Program-made: the position numbers and the translations under genes
Assembly: GCA_951804945.1 (NCBI GenBank)
Contig: OX638163.1
Coordinates: 36,208,001 to 36,272,000 of the forward strand
DNA from: Podarcis cretensis
Lineage: Eukaryota
DNA: 64,000 bases
Reading direction: 5' to 3'
The notes under the pieces: model-generated
What the model saw: the letters and a program-made list of their open reading frames with translations, nothing else
Databases searched by the model: none
Told to the model about the DNA's origin: nothing
Shown here: piece by piece, positions 4,779 through 40,349 of the stretch
How positions within the stretch are numbered: the first letter of the stretch is position 1
Layout of the letters: every line of letters begins with the position of its first letter

Positions 4779-4984
4779 ATATTGAACATATGCAGGACTC
4801 CCCTTTGATAGCATGTACTCCAAAGATGTACTTGTGCCAAACTATTGGTGCAGGCATCTTATAGTTACTACCCTGGTCTTACATTATAGAATCAGAGCTG
4901 AAAAGGATCCTAAGAATCATTTAGTTACATCTAGCATCTTCATAAATATCTCTTTTCCCAGTTCAGTCCCACTACTTAAAGAAA

Positions 4985-9314: not shown

Positions 9315-9700
9315 AATAGAAATGTCAATTTCAATTTCTCTCAGTTTCTCGGTTTTTTCAAGTTTGTCCTATTTCTGTATTAACTATTTATTTGTTCGTT
9401 TGTCACATGGATTGTCATGCTTATTCATCCTACTCTGCACATTTTATATGCAATTCCCTCAAATATGTGCAATTTGAAACTGATTTTCCCTAAATAGTTT
9501 TTGCACACTATAGTGACTCATATACAGATTTGTGAGTGCAATCTCTCTCAGTGTATCAAGTTATAGGTATGCTATTTGATTTTTGGTCAGAGAACCGCAT
9601 CCTGAAATTCAGAGATGTGTGAATTTCTGCCTTTGGGATTCACAGGGTGGTTTGGCAGTGAGAATTTGATAGGCTTGTATTAAAATGAGAACCAAATAAA
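9315..9700. repeat. Old AT-rich dispersed repeat, unclassified and probably MITE-derived; related copies near 18160-18560, 20860-21400, 56500-56620, 60480-60700
   Basis: Shared TCAATTTCAATTTCTCT..AGTTTCTC segment (9326, 20865; reverse at ~18495) and repeated ATGCATTTT motifs; boundaries approximate. Confidence 0.5.
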
Positions 9701-10958
9701 TCTCTTTCCTTAGAATAATTACAGATAGGATTGCACAATGGGTATTTTCACAAAGTCAAGGATGTTGTGCAATGATAAAAGGAGATGATCATGAAGAGTG
9801 CTGAGTCCTAATTATTCTCTCATTTATTGTGATGGCTGTCTGTCTATTGCACAACTTAAAAAACTAACCTTGGGAGAACTTTATTGCAAACATTTCCATG
9901 AAGCTGCAATTGATATGCATTTCAATATGGGAGCTTCAAAGTGAGGTCTGATGTTTTAATTCTGTGTGACATTTGAGAAATAGTGCAGTCGGAAAGTGAT
10001 TTCCCCCCTCTCAACAAATATAGGGAGTGTAATATTAAAGATTATATTCTTTTGGTGGAAGCTAATAGTACTGTTACCATGGTGCACTTATTCCTTTAAT
10101 TTCATGTAAATTTAAATTTTATGATGTTTGCTTCTCCGAGATTATATAATCCCTTTTTTATTGAAAAGAATCACAATTATGCAAATGATGATATCCAAGG
10201 AGACAAGTCGCAATTAACTGTGAAAGACAGGCTGTTACCGTAAGACATTTATTCACACTGAACAAAACAGGGCTTGCTTTAAAATAAACCTTCCTCTAAA
10301 AGAAAGAAATCAATTTGGCATAGTCTTTTAAGGGAGACATTTCTCTCAGACAAAAGTTTGCAGTCTTGGTGTATTAATGTCATTAGTTTTTAATACCTTG
10401 TGCTCCAATGCATCAGTCTTTCCCTTTGTTCAGTTAAAATAATATAAAACAAAACTCCAATGATGGTAATTGTGGCTCTGATAATCTGGTTTACACTTAA
10501 CAATGACAAGCTGGTGTATACACCTAACAGTGGATATGTGTCCACATTGTCACATAGGTGAAGACTGACCTTCATGAAAACATTTTTCTTCCCTTAAAAT
10601 TCTCAAGATTGCCAAATTTGCCCCATGATTTCACATTTGGATAGAATTTGAAGGTTCTCTTTTAGGTACTAGTGTCCCAAGCCATTTAGGGATTTATATA
10701 CTAGTATGAACACATTGAACTGGTCCTGGTAATTTACTGGCAGCCAGGGCAGTTCGTTCAGACCCAGTGATGCATGGACCCATCAGGCTACCACTTTTAC
10801 CAACCCAGCAGCTGCAATCTGCACTAGGTGCAGCTCATGGGCCATCTTTAAGTGCAGCATCATTGCCAAAGGGCAACACATTACAGTACCCTAAGCAGGA
10901 GTATGGTTAACTGAGGCCAGGCTATCCTAAGCATAAGTACTCCTAGCCACTCCAGTGA

Positions 10959-32737: not shown

Positions 32738-33723
32738 TTAAACATTTAAAATGGCAGCAAAAAAATTAAAGTTAAACATTAGCCCCGTCCTCCCCATTAA
32801 CTCTGGTCCAGATCTGGGCTAGGCTGGGTGATCTCCAAGTTGGCCAAAGCTGAATGAGGGCCAACCCATGGCCCCAAATTAAGGTCCTGGATCAGGTGGT
32901 GGAGGTGGGGTTATGCATAGCCACAGTTTTCCTTACACTTCTATACCCTTCACTGAGTCTTGCATATGAGGCCACAAATGTGTGCAGTACATGCAGCAGT
33001 GATGTTTGGCAGGTTGCACCTAAAAAGCTATGAAGAATGTTCCTTTCTGTCAAATTAATCTTGCATTCAAGTTCCATTACTACAAACCTTTCCATTTAAT
33101 CACTGACTTGACTTGCATAGCTGTCAATATCTTAATTTGATTAAAGGTTTCCTTCAGCGGAATGTTTCTCAAATGAGATCCAGTAAGGTCTAATTTAGGA
33201 GGCATACTAGGCAGCATTAATGGCTGAAATTACCTTTATTATGATTAAGATTAACTCCAGGAAAAATTGTCTTACAGGAATGGCTATACTAAGTATTTAT
33301 CGGAACAAATATAACACTAATAAAGAGTTCATAACAAAGACATGCTGTTCAAGAATAAATGAAACAATTGAAGTTCTTCTGGCTCCTACTGCTTCCTGGT
33401 ATTAGGGAAGGCGCACTGCAAAGGTTTCTGTGCACAATCTCCCACTTAATGTACAGTAGCCGCTGCTACTGAACATTAAGCCACTACAGTCCTGGCTTTC
33501 CTCAAAAAAACTCCTGGGAACTGTAGTTTACTTATAAGTAGTTTTATTTTTATATTAACCTCTTTTTTATTAACTTTCCTATCTTTCCTTTCCTTTTGTG
33601 ACTGTACAAAAAAAGAAGGGGAAGAAACCACATTTTTTATTATTATTAATTTTTGCTACCTGGTTTCTTTGCCCTTCCTAAAGGATAACATGAATTTCTT
33701 TGAATCAATTAAATTGACAAATA

Positions 33724-33921
33724 CAGTGGTACCTTGGGTTACAGATGCTTCAGGTTACAGACTCCGCTAACCCAGAAATAGTACCTGGGGTTAAGAACTT
33801 TGCTTCAGGATGAGAACAAAAATCGTGTGGTGGCAGCGGGAGGCTCCATTAGCTAAAGTGGTGTCTCAGTTTAAGAACGGACCTCCAGAATGAATTAAGT
33901 TCTTAACCCAAGGTACCACTG
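33724..33921. mobile_element. Tc1/pogo-type MITE (CAGTGGTACC TIR)
   Basis: CAGTGGTACCTTGGGTTA / TAACCCAAGGTACCACTG, TA TSD; absent from the duplicate unit. Confidence 0.92.
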
Positions 33922-34204
33922 TACACCATCCATATAGACTGCATAATGACTCATTTGTCCAGTATGGAAATTTCAGAATGTCCCTCAACTTCATTCAGCT
34001 TTCTATGCAAATTGAAATTAGTTTCAAACACACCCCTCTGCCTGCTGAACTTTCCTCCTCATCTTCTGTTTTTGAGGCACTATCTTCAAAAAAACATTGG
34101 GGGGTGGACTCTGCTGAAAAGCATGTAAGGGAAGCATTCTACACCTGCAGTGCGAATTTTACACTCTTTGAAAGATGCAAGAAGTTAAGGCGAATCCTTT
34201 AATA

Positions 34205-34340
34205 CAGGCATCCCCAACCTGCGGCCCTCCAGATGTTTTGGACTACAATTCCCATCATCCCTAACCACTGGTCCTGTTAGCTAGGGATCATGGGAGTTGT
34301 AGGCCAAAACTTCTGAAGGGCCGCAGGTTGGGGATGCCAG
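34205..34340. mobile_element. Palindromic hAT MITE
   Basis: CAGGCATCCCCAACCTGCGGCCCT ... AGGGCCGCAGGTTGGGGATGCCAG; 8-bp TSD CTTTAATA/CTTTAAAA. Confidence 0.9.
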
Positions 34341-34944
34341 CTTTAAAATGTTTTCCAAGTATTCAGGGAAGGAGAAAGAAACCACCCCCCAGCCCCTGTC
34401 TACATTCAATGTTCAAAGTAGTAGCATACTATTTTAATTAGTCATGGTTTTCCTCAAAAAGTCCTGAGAACTGTAGTGTGTTAATCATAAGGTAGCAGTA
34501 TGCTTATATAATTTCCCTCTCTATTAACTTCCCTGTCTCTTGCTTTCCTTTTGTGACTACAAAACAAACACACACACACACACAAATAAACCACAACCCA
34601 CCATTTTTGTGGATTATTTTTTACTTCCTGGCTTCTTTGCCCTTTCTAAAGGATAACATGGACGTCTCTGAATTAATTCAGTTGACAAATAACCCATCCA
34701 TATAGACCTGTGACAGAGCGAAAGTCCTGCATGGGGACTCATTTGTCCTGTATGGAAACCTCAGTGTCCCTCAACTTCATTCAGCTTTCCATGCAAACAG
34801 AAACTGTGTGAATTTTACCCTCTTTGAAAGATGCAATAAGTTGAGACTAATTCTTAAAAATGTTTGCCAAGTATTCAGGGAAGGAGACATATTTAGAGAA
34901 AGCAACCAACACCCAGCTCCCATCAGCATTCTGTGTTGAAAACA

Positions 34945-35245: not shown

Positions 35246-35509
35246 GTGAAAAAGTGATATTTCCACACACCCATCCCTTGTCAAATGCAGGGTGAATCTT
35301 TGAAGCTCAGCATAGTCATTGTGGTCATATAGAAAAGTTTTCTGGGCTTTACATAATCCCTGCAACCTTTGCCTACAAGGGGTTGAAAGATCAATTTATT
35401 TCCTGAGTATTTCACTGTTGCATATTCTCAGTCATAAATTAATCTCTTCCCATTCTCTGCCACTGTGCAAGCTTACACACACAGGGGGTTGTGGCGCTCA
35501 TCTCGTTTT

Positions 35510-35891
35510 GCGTGGCAAGTACCCTCCCCCATGAGAAATGAAGACACTGGACACATTATTTAAGGTTAATGGGCATAAAAAGCCATAACTTTATTGATTA
35601 CAGAATTGAAAGGTATTGGCCTTAGGCATTGGCTCCTACCGTCTACCCGGCATGGTGACCGGGATGGGTTGTCCACAAGCCATGGGAGACCTGTTGAAGT
35701 ACGCCAACTAGGATCCCACGGGTGTCACCGCTCGGGGGCGTGCCGGAGGCCCTTACCTCCCTAGGTTTCGGACAAGGCCACGCCCCCCGGAGTCCTTTAC
35801 CAGACTACCCTTTCCATTGGGGAAGGTGATGGCGCTTCCTTCCCCCCATTCATTTGCATAACAATAAACCCCTGCCAATGCCTAACCGCCA
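35510..35891 (-). repeat. Ngaro repeat B2 (3' terminal)
   Basis: Direct repeat of 36268-36650 (about 9 mismatches by eye); carries AATAAA on minus strand. Confidence 0.95.
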
Positions 35892-36267
35892 ATACCGCGG
35901 AAGTTGTGACGTTTGCTACGAGGTAGGCGAAAAAACCAAAAGGCTTGAAGTGTGCCAACTTGGAAAAATTCCTACCAGGCCCCTTGCGGCGACCAACCGA
36001 AGTCCATAGCAAGGTCATACCTAGCTAAACCTAAAGGGTGGGTGGAATGGGAAAACCGCTCAGCTGGGAAAGGGAAAAGAGGGCGGTCCCGGGGCATGCC
36101 TGGCCTTAAATGGGCTAGGCCCCGCCTCCCCGGTCCACCAATTGGCGGATGGGGTGGAAGGCACGCCCGGGGATTCCCTGACCACGCAGGGGTAAGACTC
36201 CGCCCCCGCGTGTGTGGGTGGAGGGTTTTGCCCGCAACCCCCTCTCCTCTCAGGCAGAAATGGCTTT
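35892..36267 (-). repeat. Ngaro repeat A2 (complete copy of A)
   Basis: Its segment ~36113-36267 repeats 37645-37799. Confidence 0.92.
36100..36150 (-). promoter_or_regulatory. Putative Pol II promoter in Ngaro A repeat: CCAAT box, GC box, TATA-like CATTTAAGG
   Basis: Minus strand GCCAATTGG..GGGAGGCGGGG..CATTTAAGG; same order in the 50-kb copy (GCCAATTGG..GGGGCGGG..CACTTAAGG). Confidence 0.55.
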
Positions 36268-36650
36268 GCGTGGCAAGTAACCTCCCCCATGAGAAATGAA
36301 GACACTGGACACATTATTTAAGGTTAATGGGCATAAAAAGGCCACAACTTTATTGATTACAGAATTGAAAGGTATTGGCCTTAGGCATTGGCTCCTACCG
36401 TCTACCCGGCATGGTGACCGGGATGGGTTGTCCACAAGCCGTGGGAGACCTGTTGAAGTACGCCAACTAGGATCCCACGGGTGTCACCGCTCGGGGGCGT
36501 GCTGGAGGCCCTTACCTCCCTAGGTTTCGGACAAGGCCATGCCCCCCGGAGTCCTTTACTGGACTACCCTTTCCATTGGGGAAGGTGATGGCGCTTCCTT
36601 CCTCCCATTCATTTGCATAACAATAAACCCCTGCCAATGCCTAACCGCCA
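36268..36650 (-). repeat. Ngaro repeat B1
   Basis: Direct repeat of 35510-35891. Confidence 0.95.
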
Positions 36651-36677
36651 CTCGAGCAAAGCTCGCCGCCAGTACCT

Positions 36678-37241
36678 TCAAACCTGTAACCAATCCCTAA
36701 TTCCTGCTATGATGTCCCCCAGCCAAATATCATTTCCAGCATCTGACAGATGCACGCCATCCCATCTGTAGAGGGCCTCGTTGCTGTACTGGATGCTCGG
36801 GTGGCCAATGATGCACCCACCCAGAGCCGCCACTCTACGTTCCACAGCCCGCTGCAAGACCTTTCTTGCTTTATTGATTCCAACCGGGCTCAAACAATCC
36901 CTCCATGTCCTTCTCTCGAGCAACGAGGACCATAGTATAGTAATGTTTGGGTAAACTGCCGTCAGATCAGCCAGGTCGTCAAAGATGTTCCATCTCAAGT
37001 CAATAGCTTTACGGTATGCAAGATCATTTTCTCCCAACTGGATAAGCAAGGCATCCGGGGGGCCCTCGCGGGCGGCCCTTGCCAACACAGCTGGCTTGAA
37101 TTCGCTCCAGCGCATCCCTCTTCGTGCTATCCACACCAGCTCGACATTGGCAGGTAAATTCAAATTCTGCCCCAACCCGGTCGTCATTGCACAATTCTTG
37201 GCCCAATGCACAATGCTGTGGCCCACCAACCAAATGCGCAC
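36678..37241 (-). CDS. SGNH/GDSL-family hydrolase (esterase/lipase-like) of the Ngaro element, intact frame
   Basis: Block I WLVGHSIV (Ser), block II ARRG (Gly), block III IQLGENDL (Asn), block V DGVH (Asp/His); 187 codons; starts at GTG, so the true start is uncertain. Confidence 0.88.
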   Translation of the reverse strand: MRIWLVGHSIVHWAKNCAMTTGLGQNLNLPANVELVWIARRGMRWSEFKPAVLARAAREGPPDALLIQLGENDLAYRKAIDLRWNIFDDLADLTAVYPNITILWSSLLERRTWRDCLSPVGINKARKVLQRAVERRVAALGGCIIGHPSIQYSNEALYRWDGVHLSDAGNDIWLGDIIAGIRDWLQV

Positions 37242-37299
37242 CCTCTTGCACTCCGAAAAGCAAATAGACAGAAAAAACCGGGTAAGGGTACCACACCAG

Positions 37300-37644
37300 T
37301 CATAAATTCTTTCTCACGTAAGCCCTGTAGGCATTAGATTTCCACCGCCCCAGGTCCTTTATCCTCTCTGCGGAGAGCCCCAGGTGGACAGCTGTGGTGG
37401 CGGCCCCAATCCGAAAGGAGTGAGCCGCAAATTCAGCCGCGGGCAGACTGCAGGCTGTCAAAGCCAGGCGCATCACCCTTGTAAACTGGTGTCTAGCCAA
37501 CAGTGATCTATCCGCGTGATTAAAAAGGGTGCCTGGGCTACAGGGCCTTAAGTATAGGAAACGCCTTGTATCCCTCACCGGGCAGGGCCCACTACCTTGT
37601 GCAGCTGGTAACCGTATGAGAGCCCCCTTACCCCGTTGGTCCAT
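37300..37644 (-). pseudogene. Tyrosine recombinase C-terminal half, 5'-truncated by the internal deletion
   Basis: DQRGKG, CPV, HSFRIGAAT (H-x-x-R), LGRWKSNAYRAY (Trp and catalytic Tyr); N-terminal catalytic Arg/Lys missing. Confidence 0.92.
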
Positions 37645-37799
37645 GGCTAGGCCCTGCCTCCGTGGTCCGCCGATTGGTGGACGGGGTGGAAGGCATGCCC
37701 GGGGATTCCCTGACCACGCGGGGGCAAGACCCCGCCCCCGCGTGTGTGGGTGGAGGGTTTTGCCCGCAACCCCCTCTCCTCTCAGGCGGAAATGGCTTT
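37645..37799 (-). repeat. Ngaro repeat A1 (5' terminal, truncated)
   Basis: About 12 mismatches by eye to the corresponding part of A2, many at CpG. Confidence 0.92.
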
Positions 37800-38077
37800 A
37801 CCGGCCAAGGGAGCTGGTGTACAGCTTCTGGGTCATGTGGCCAGCATGACTAAGCCGCTTCTGGCGAACCAGAGCAGTGCAAGGAAATGCCGTTTACCTT
37901 CCTGCCAGAGCGGTACCAGTTTATCTATTCGCACTTGACAAGCTTCCGAACTGCTACGTTGGCAGGAGCAGGGACCGAGCAATGGGAGCTCACCCCGTCG
38001 TGGGGATTTGAACCGCCGACCTTCTGATCGGCAAGCCCTGGTCTCTGTGATTTAACCCACATTGCCACCCGCGTCCC
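37800..38077 (-). mobile_element. Sauria SINE 5' part; its continuation lies at 35485-35509 across the Ngaro insertion
   Basis: GGGGTTGTGGCGCTCATCTCGTTTT + ACCGGCCAAGGGAGC rebuilds the sequence seen intact at ~8949-8990. Confidence 0.93.
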
Positions 38078-40149
38078 TTTTTTGTACATATTCCCACCTA
38101 AAATTTGTGTTCACATTGCATGCATTTATTCTAAAAGGTTAAGAACAAAGGATAACTGCATTCTGACCTGGAAATACAAAGCAAGCCATTTTGCTTTTAA
38201 AAATATGGCCAAAGTAAAGTCATCCAGGATTCTTAGAATTAGCTGGTATCTTTCATTTCCACCTCTACCATTCCTTCACCTGTAACCTAGATGCTCTTTG
38301 TTGTTGTTGTTCTGTTTTGTTCTGGCTCTTGTTTCATTCCTATCCCCTTTAAGAACATCTTTGCTTCTCAGCTGGAGAAGTTTATTTATGACTTGTTTAA
38401 TGGCTTCTATGAAGGGCACGCCATGCACTCGCCCACCACAAAATGCATTTATTCAGTTCCATAGATTCACCATTTGCTTTTAAATAGCTTAATGAACACA
38501 CCTGAAATATTCATAATGAAATGCAGGATCCTGGAGCTATAACAACTTTTGGTTCCTGAAGAGTGTGTAGCTTTTCTATTAAAATGTATTAAGTTACTGT
38601 TAATGCATTTATGGGGGCATTATGCTGGGTGGCAATGATTATAGTCATAATTCTGGGAGGCTGACAAAGAACCCCAGACTAAGTCATTACTAGAAAGTTT
38701 TTATAAGATCACTGAATATAGCAGACCTTAGAAATGATGTGAAACTTCACTGTAGGCTAGACTGTATGTGTAGACAAGGCTTCAGAACTCAGGTCAATCC
38801 ATATTTTGTTTGTTTAAAATAATTTGGTTTTACAATTTGATAGTGTTTTGCAATGTGCCTTACACGTTACTCAAAAACAGTTTTATCTTAAAGTAACTGG
38901 GTAACCAAGACTTCCCATTAAACAAATCTTAGTTGATTAATGGGGATCAATTAATAGATTAAGGTTGCAATCATATACACCTTTTTTTTCAGCCCCAGGG
39001 CCATATTCCATTCAGGCACATGCAAGTGGTGGGCATAGCTAGAGGCAAGAGTGAGTGGTACAATTAATACAAATTTTACCTCTGTGAATAGACTAGTTTA
39101 TATCCACATTCACATACAGCCCTTAGTCCTCCACCTAGGCAAACAAGAGGCAATTCAAGGATACACTCCAGCTAACAAAACCAATTCAGGTGTGAAGCAG
39201 GGCCAATGAAGTGTGTTGCCTGGACGTATGTGGCATGGTCTAGGGGAGAGAACTAGTGGTCCACATTTGGCCCTAGAGCCTGTGGCTTTCTATTCCTGCC
39301 ATACACAACTATTTGGGAATATATCCAGTTGATCTCAATGGGGCTTACATCTGGATAGACATGGAGAATATGGTTCTGTAAATCAGATTAGTGAATTAAA
39401 ACCCTTTTTGTAGGGCTGCACTGCAACTCTGCAGGAAAGGGTGTAATCCTAACGTAATGTGAAATGATTTTGTTACTTGATGCAATTTTTGTATATGCCT
39501 TCAATTTTAAAAATGATGTTACTTCATATACTGGCATCAAAGGCATAAGTTTAGATACAATGTATTATATTGTCTTTCTCATGTTCACCCATGGTTCTCC
39601 AGATTTGTTGCTTCATTAACAAAATTACTAATCCCCACAAACTGATGCCAATGTTTAGTGCTAGTTTAGTGCCGTTTTGTGCTGCCCCCCCCCCCAACTG
39701 AGTAATTGAAACTCTAACTTGGGTCATAATTAAATGTCCAGAAACCCAACCTGATCCAATTGACTCCAAATGAGTGTCAAAATGGTGTGCTGGTTTTGTG
39801 TCATTTTGTGATGCAAACCACACTTTCTGAGCAGCCCCTAAAACTGAGTAATTGAAGTCAAACCAGGGGCAATAGGTACACCCCAAAACCAAACCTTGTC
39901 ACACGCAAACCTGGGTCACAAGTAAATGGCCTAAACCCCCAAATGGGGATTGCGGCACAAAGCAACACCAAACCAGCACAATACTTTGGCACTGAACTGC
40001 AGTTAATCAGACAAGGTTTTGGGGGTTTTTTTTGCTCAGAGATCTCAACATCTCTCTCTCAATGTCTCAGAGATCAATTAAAAGTGGTGAAGAGATCAGA
40101 ACTCCACCTCCTGCCCTTTCTGGGAACAGAAACAATTTGGAGTATTGCT

Positions 40150-40193
<44 letters not shown>
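40150..40193. repeat. Compound (GTCT)n(CT)n microsatellite
   Basis: Seen directly. Confidence 0.9.
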
Positions 40194-40194
<1 letters not shown>

Positions 40195-40349
40195 GGGGTG
40201 TACATATGCCCCCTGGTTTGAGGGTCAAATACTGAGTTTGGAGGATGGCACAGAAAGTGCGGTTGGCAACACAAAATGGTACCAAACCAGCATACCACTT
40301 TGGCATCTGTTTCTTGTCAAAATAGAACAAAACAATCACTAGTTTAGGG

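Follow-up and report, generated by a model that had tools for sequence, protein, structure and literature searches.

A short, single-copy Ngaro element in a lizard genome that was probably truncated during reverse transcription

Ngaro retrotransposons have been described in Xenopus, where DIRS-53_XT and DIRS-54_XT read A1-gag-RT/RH-YR-SGNH-B1-A2-B2, with A repeats of ~220–236 bp, a hydrolase (SGNH) without proven function, and some copies that have lost repeats (PMC9210276; statements on published elements here and below rest on excerpts of the papers cited). In Cafeteria, 5′-deleted variants and solo A-B units lie beside full-length Ngaro copies, and one such variant, type 2b, which lacks ~2 kb over ORF1, recurs as a type (PMC8547959). 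Other derivatives of split-repeat tyrosine-recombinase (YR) elements form amplified families, namely SIRE of VIPER, which consists of A2-spacer-B2 (PMC6681497), and TOC1 of Chlamydomonas (PMC9940879). The model for end restoration in YR retrotransposons is an old one that few experiments have backed; in the case of DIRS-1, the primer is described as not known, and attempts to amplify circle junctions failed (PMC7192593).

Here we analyzed a compact Ngaro element in a 64,000-nucleotide stretch of the Podarcis cretensis genome (contig OX638163.1, positions 36,208,001–36,272,000), which we call the window and to which coordinates without a locus name refer. The element occupies 35507–37799 (~2.3 kb) on the minus strand, in the order A1, YR C terminus, SGNH, B1, A2, spacer, B2. 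An earlier note made from the sequence alone had given this anatomy as A1-YR-SGNH-B1-A2-B2, with B repeats ~97–98% identical; the order and the identity (97.7% over 386 columns) held up, but A1 is in fact cut short, and a ~160-bp spacer between A2 and B2 had been omitted. Self-alignment of full-length relatives gives an A repeat of ~220–230 bp, with a unique ~155-bp spacer after the A2 copy, and the A1 of the 2.3-kb copy (37645–37799, minus, placed by A1/A2 alignment and by self-alignment of relatives) is therefore truncated, comprising the first 155 of ~217 bp.

The remaining features also lie on the minus strand unless stated. Downstream of A1 come a YR C-terminal frame of 114 codons that begins at the junction ATG (37303–37644, recognized by identity to the relatives' full YR frames), the branch point, pyrimidine tract, and splice-acceptor position of the SGNH exon (37253–37290, by comparison with relatives), and the SGNH exon itself (36678–37252, from the ORF and aligned frames), which is open and contains GHS, G, GEND, and DGVH motifs. 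Self-alignment placed the 385-bp B1 (36266–36650, AATAAA at 36354–36349), the full A2 repeat (36052–36267), and B2 (35507–35891, AATAAA at 35595–35590 and an AAA core at its end); the unique spacer U, ~160 bp (35892–36051), was delimited by self-alignment of full-length relatives. An AAA at the internal B1/A2 junction (36265–36267) is the predicted crossover core of the recombinase, the same core being found at both element ends. A motif scan of the plus strand found a G-tract motif (36036–36051) that starts at the A2 end and is predicted to form a G-quadruplex on the antisense (cDNA) strand; in this copy one of its tracts is short of one G. The A1-to-YR junction reads CCTAGCC-ATGG, as reported earlier, and falls one base upstream of the TATA-like CATTTAAGG, which A2 retains (36112–36104); A1 thus lacks the TATA-like box, as had also been noticed, together with the predicted start site and an R-like 3′ part.

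The truncated A1 matches A2 at 92.3% identity over 155 columns, 9 of the 12 substitutions being at CpG. This divergence exceeded that of the B pair (12/155 versus 8/385, p = 0.004), but with CpG sites excluded the difference disappeared (3/155 versus 3/385, p = 0.36). The surplus A1/A2 divergence is CpG decay, and both repeat pairs were therefore probably identical at insertion. An origin of A1 and A2 from different templates was rejected on the same test.

Full-length relatives are ~8.1 kb long and carry A1, a long 5′ UTR, ORF1, RT/RH, YR, SGNH, B1, A2, U, and B2, a layout and A length like those of the Xenopus elements, and several have 100% identical repeats. They are 82–89% identical to the 2.3-kb copy; among the best 40 copies scored, no full-length copy was closer than ~89%, and the parent was not seen. 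The closest interiors belong to L050 (99%) and L032 (96%), which are short copies themselves. An RT search listed at least 150 matches of 1248 candidates. The Ngaro identity proposed earlier was borne out by the split repeats A1...B1-A2-B2, in which A1 is whole in relatives, and by the relatives' co-oriented gag-like ORF, RT/RH, and YR (RVT_1 at E 9e-14; integrase SAM-like domain weak), followed by an SGNH of the amphibian type whose Pfam GDSL matches are weak and below cut-off. Absence of a methyltransferase after RH separates Ngaro from DIRS1 and PAT; Pfam found none there, and the RT frames of two relatives end just past RH. In each of the eight copies checked, AATAAA stands ~90 nt upstream of the B end, Rfam returned 0 matches, and no permuted insertions (A-B-A-ORFs-B) were seen among the loci mapped. 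The 5′ UTR, 1.7–2.6 kb with tandem repeats, is nearly all different between subfamilies (L035:1620–3630 and relatives), whereas A, B, and the ORFs remain alignable. One young full-length copy lies within a tandem array of ~178-bp units (L040:1–1186 and 9440–9901).

The 2.3-kb copy has lost gag and RT, as first noted, and retains only the YR C terminus and SGNH. The YR piece, which Pfam did not match, is assigned by its 78–89% identity to the relatives' full YR frames; it keeps the HSFR, W, and Tyr motifs and has lost the GALR arginine (the first catalytic arginine) and the SKTD lysine. The SGNH frame (37313–36678, 211 aa stop to stop) had a weak Pfam GDSL match (E 4e-4, below cut-off), and a PDB sequence search found one chance match and no solved-structure relative, but its catalytic motifs are conserved in 8/9 aligned frames. 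The description of the hydrolase as intact is thus right as regards reading frame and catalytic motifs; against it, the first ATG (37187–37185) lies downstream of the GHS serine (37217–37215), and the acceptor reads CGG where relatives read CAG, a change found only in this copy among those shown (L055 and L056 have a local deletion there).

The acceptor belongs to a conserved set of splice signals. Upstream of the SGNH coding part, 11/11 long copies of the close set have a branch point, a pyrimidine tract, and CAG, and the same signals occur in 87/91 scorable loci of other families; the YR frame of relatives opens with a similar acceptor (11/11 in the close set, 40/42 in other families). A CAG/GTA donor in ORF1 was in the same phase in all 45 copies in which the site was located (in 10 it was not). 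Moreover, L103 and L145, which are 80–82% alike and on different contigs, represent two subfamilies and are each missing an exact GT-AG segment with its donor in mid-YR and its end at the SGNH acceptor (L103 segment 7655–7745, L145 segment 7645–7735, oriented), and in L124 and L167 a deletion begins at the ORF1 donor and runs to other AG sites. These four loci are likely to be integrated spliced RNAs, and the signals as a whole point to a spliced Gag-SGNH product and to the integration of spliced RNAs. Judged by these signals, the SGNH of the 2.3-kb copy is an orphaned exon, with donor, acceptor, and promoter gone. Splicing as the source of its A1-to-YR junction was rejected: no GT...AG segment has been deleted there, the A repeat continuing with CATTT rather than a GT donor and AG standing only at the 3′ side.

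The insertion site allowed us to examine the ends of the element. The 2.3-kb copy interrupts a high-copy SINE, which we take to be of the Sauria SINE type, its upstream half at 37800–38075 (flank matches; contig depth in the millions) and its downstream half at 35475–35506 (flank matches), both on the minus strand. Among SINE copies whose match reaches the end of the left flank, 48/49 run on into the right flank, and the AAA core is common to both element ends and the internal B1/A2 junction; AA closes all 47 copies displayed, and AAAGCC opens most of them. The contiguous SINE flanks and the shared core therefore indicate that the element entered as a single unit with exact ends, by integration at a short core that the circle junction also contains and without target duplication, as is typical of Ngaro.

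We then asked how often the junction occurs. The only match in the genome to a junction 21-mer, allowing up to 2 mismatches, was the 2.3-kb locus, and among the best 40 of 131 candidates scored with 201 bp around the junction, no other locus spanned the join. The 2.3-kb form is single-copy, and the assembly contains no amplified subfamily of it, contrary to the suggestion of a mobilised non-autonomous subfamily, for which the junction search had been put forward as the check. An ATG in a Kozak context is indeed present at the junction, as the earlier note had pointed out, but is probably there by chance, because the position reads AC(G/A) in most relatives (three of the four closest interiors) and no promoter lies upstream. 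In contigs, position 37643 was G at a depth of 6.6 of 15.2 in run X1 and 8.8 of 8.8 in run X7, near single-copy flank depths of 14 and 7.9, respectively. This depth table suggests that the same junction, with ACG, is present in runs of two organism labels. Contigs of runs X5 and X6 do not reach across the junction, from which nothing can be concluded, and no contig gave a sign of a longer allele, which contigs would show poorly. Among the runs listed as holding the locus, none was an RNA run.

Although its junction is unique, the 2.3-kb copy has many counterparts. In at least 24 independent copies, the 3′ part of A1 is fused directly to an internal point, which differs from copy to copy. In the close set, 7 of the 10 A1-retaining, 5′-deleted events were such A-joins (the window copy, L032, L043, L050, the L055 cluster, L064, and L065), and the other three break in the UTR. 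An independent set comprised 100 of the at least 150 SGNH loci listed (2012 candidates), from other families with ~48–69% protein identity. Its 62 A1-bearing copies included 36 long copies, 15 direct joins, and 11 other deletions, the joins falling at A positions ~185–231 (binomial p = 6e-11 under a generous null with the whole of A as target and a 3-kb range). These 62 were retained from 65 A1 calls, L152 and L198 being false calls and L182 too degraded, and 35 loci without A1 within 7.7 kb were excluded from the A-join counts. L112 was kept among the long copies though possibly another A-end join, and L134 and L169, which lack a clean deletion, were conservatively counted as other deletions; because searches scored the best candidates only, all A-join counts are lower bounds. 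Matches that ended early led us to two extreme forms, L203 (432–1850, minus) and L204 (415–1795), non-coding A1-B1-A2-U-B2 mini-elements of 1.4 kb whose interiors span only 22 and 54 bp and which are 99.6–99.7% identical to a full-length copy.

The A-joins share several properties. The 3′ breakpoint differs in all 24 events, spacer U is on the left side in none, and 10 of the 12 fully resolved joins have 1–4 nt of microhomology. Each of two other A-joins searched genome-wide was single-copy. Among copies with B1/B2 identity of at least 99.7%, 4/16 were A-joins, compared to 11/46 of the others (p = 1.0); A-joins are thus no rarer in the youngest copies, which favours an origin at birth, and they look to have been made during reverse transcription. 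Other deletions had a breakpoint in the 5′ UTR or in an ORF. The multi-copy deleted forms that we checked share kilobases of flank and are therefore recent segmental duplicates. Near-identical short-copy clusters lie on C5 (96.04–96.22 Mb, 4 matches) and C8 (13.8–14.4 Mb, 5 matches), the pairs checked sharing 9.7–9.9 kb of ~99% identical flank; the C5 copies checked, with 9.7 kb at 99%, are duplicates. In L133 (oriented 4856–4890), an A-to-ORF1 join contains ~32 nt of filler that includes a long A run.

The position at which A stops coincides with a conserved motif. Four C3 tracts with 1–2-nt loops lie directly past A2 in all families examined; the motif was present in 21/22 copies with both A repeats and 25/28 solo A-U-B units, began at most 3 nt from the A repeat end in 19/22 copies, and was the element's sole such motif on either strand in 20/21 (the 22 copies are related and the counts not independent, although families differ by 30–40% in SGNH protein). 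It arose in 0–2 of 300 shuffles (7 copies), and the antisense strand was predicted to fold as a quadruplex in 4/4 cases. In 19 measured copies the joins lay from −2 to 39 nt before the tract (an overestimate in diverged copies), compared to 61 nt in the 2.3-kb copy; under an exponential tail with a mean of 15, the chance of one 61-nt case in 22 is ~0.3. The predicted quadruplex is likely to set where the left-end repeat A stops.

We think it fairly probable that the 2.3-kb copy, a single and likely dead element, was born short in reverse transcription and that a full-length relative then supplied the recombinase that pasted it whole into the SINE. In this scheme, the RNA would start ~30 nt past the TATA-like box in A1 and end after the AATAAA in B2, and minus-strand cDNA would be synthesized from the 3′ end. 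A plus strand primed in B1 would copy the B1/A2 junction and halt at the cDNA G-quadruplex just past A2, fixing the length of A; a halt after the last base of A would explain why A ends where it does. In the normal course, this strong-stop, consisting of the B end and A, would pair with the copy of the RNA's 5′ end, such that both ends are restored and the circle is closed. If the minus strand had ended early (here inside YR), the trimmed strong-stop end would instead be joined to it with 0–4 nt of microhomology, and the product, A(trimmed)-interior-B1-A2-U-B2, would be a circle with an intact B/A junction, able to integrate. The start site, RNA ends, quadruplex, and strong-stop are predictions from sequence. 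With the TATA box, start site, and R-like region gone, the 2.3-kb copy would no longer give rise to transcripts or new copies.

Birth as a short copy is supported by the unique junction, the AAA-core ends, the contiguous SINE flanks, and the recurrence of A-joins across families, and the GT-AG losses in L103, L145, L124, and L167 independently suggest that non-full-length RNA copies integrate. Against it, the join lies 61 nt before the tract and upstream of the TATA-like box, without clear microhomology. A one-off deletion after insertion, in which end joining removed ~5.8 kb, between a point in A1 and a point in YR, from a full-length copy, would suit a breakpoint outside the cluster of other joins and the lack of clear microhomology, and deletions elsewhere in the elements do occur. 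The earlier note had taken a junction unique to this locus as the mark of such a simple deletion. The junction is indeed unique, but given the recurrent A1-to-internal joins this is not its best reading: a random 5′ breakpoint would have only a ~3% chance of landing within the initial 155 bp of ~6 kb, compared to A-joins in 15/62 of A1-bearing copies, and the contigs suggest the same junction under two organism labels and show no longer allele, although contigs reveal such alleles poorly. We therefore regard a deletion after insertion as fairly unlikely. An ordinary A-join near the A end, followed by a small second deletion back past the TATA box, would account for both class membership and the outlying position, but requires two events, of which no intermediate was seen, and seems to us improbable. 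A mobilised non-autonomous subfamily spreading the hydrolase is very improbable: both ends and all 3′ repeats are retained, such split-repeat elements exist (TOC1, PMC9940879; SIRE, PMC6681497), and DIRS-1 RT acts in trans (PMC7192593), but the structure was found at one locus rather than several unlinked ones, the cis-acting signals by which the element would be transcribed and its ends restored (the TATA-like box, the predicted start, and the R-like part of A1, whose roles are inferred) are gone, the splice donor is deleted and the acceptor changed, and the multi-copy deleted forms checked are segmental duplicates.

Returning to birth as a short copy, we can extend it to a model, on which our confidence is evenly balanced, in which the YR split-repeat lineage uses a conserved cDNA G-quadruplex as a programmed plus-strand stop that would define A, replace the retroviral tRNA stop, and rescue incomplete cDNAs. 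Truncation at birth would then affect about a quarter of new coding insertions and perhaps also many of the solo A-U-B units, and the 2.3-kb copy would be a fossil of that step. The proposed step resembles the second strand transfer of retroviral plus-strand strong-stop, the stop being a DNA quadruplex here and a tRNA primer in retroviruses. LINEs are 5′ truncated with variable 5′ loss and microhomology and are dead on arrival, features that the A-joined copies share; unlike in LINEs and retroviruses, however, the ends would be restored from the internal B/A junction and integrated by a tyrosine recombinase. The short copies would be a genomic footprint of strand transfer in split-repeat elements, with the G-tract offering a single, cheap test target, and shortness in a Ngaro copy should not be interpreted as a sign of age-related decay or of a non-autonomous family. 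The 2.3-kb locus itself is ordinary debris, its value being that of a member of a class that exposes a testable replication step.

Some differences from published elements also emerged. The lizard B repeat (~385 bp) and the G-tract spacer between A2 and B2 set the family apart from the Xenopus elements, and the excerpts of PMC9210276 make no mention of splicing, A-joined short copies, or a quadruplex. As in Cafeteria, 5′-deleted variants and solo A-B units accompany full-length copies, but unlike type 2b (PMC8547959), the lizard short copies all differ from one another in their 3′ breakpoint, and their 5′ breakpoints cluster at the A end. SIRE (PMC6681497) has the structure of the lizard solos, and it and TOC1 (PMC9940879) are amplified, whereas the 2.3-kb copy is single. 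Our literature search turned up no publication that deals with the structure of Ngaro elements in squamates, with short copies formed by A-joins, or with a quadruplex where A2 ends, parts of which the founding Ngaro papers may cover.

Solo A-U-B units are very common. An A2–B2 query (best 40 of 3995 candidates scored) fetched 30 loci, of which 28 were solos (among L073–L101), ~760 bp long and 90–97% identical; they could have arisen by recombination between A1 and A2 or represent the shortest outcomes of the rescue proposed above. Many coding copies (among L032–L201) stop at one B and lack A2-U-B2, likely through B1/B2 recombination. Elsewhere in the window, 33488–34887 is an old local duplication, with pieces 83–94% alike at a spacing of 512–968 bp, one copy of which is split by a ~200-bp element whose ends are perfect inverted repeats of 20 bp (33722–33923), and 39748–40320 holds MITE-like nested inverted repeats, 72–89% complementary, with a simple repeat within.
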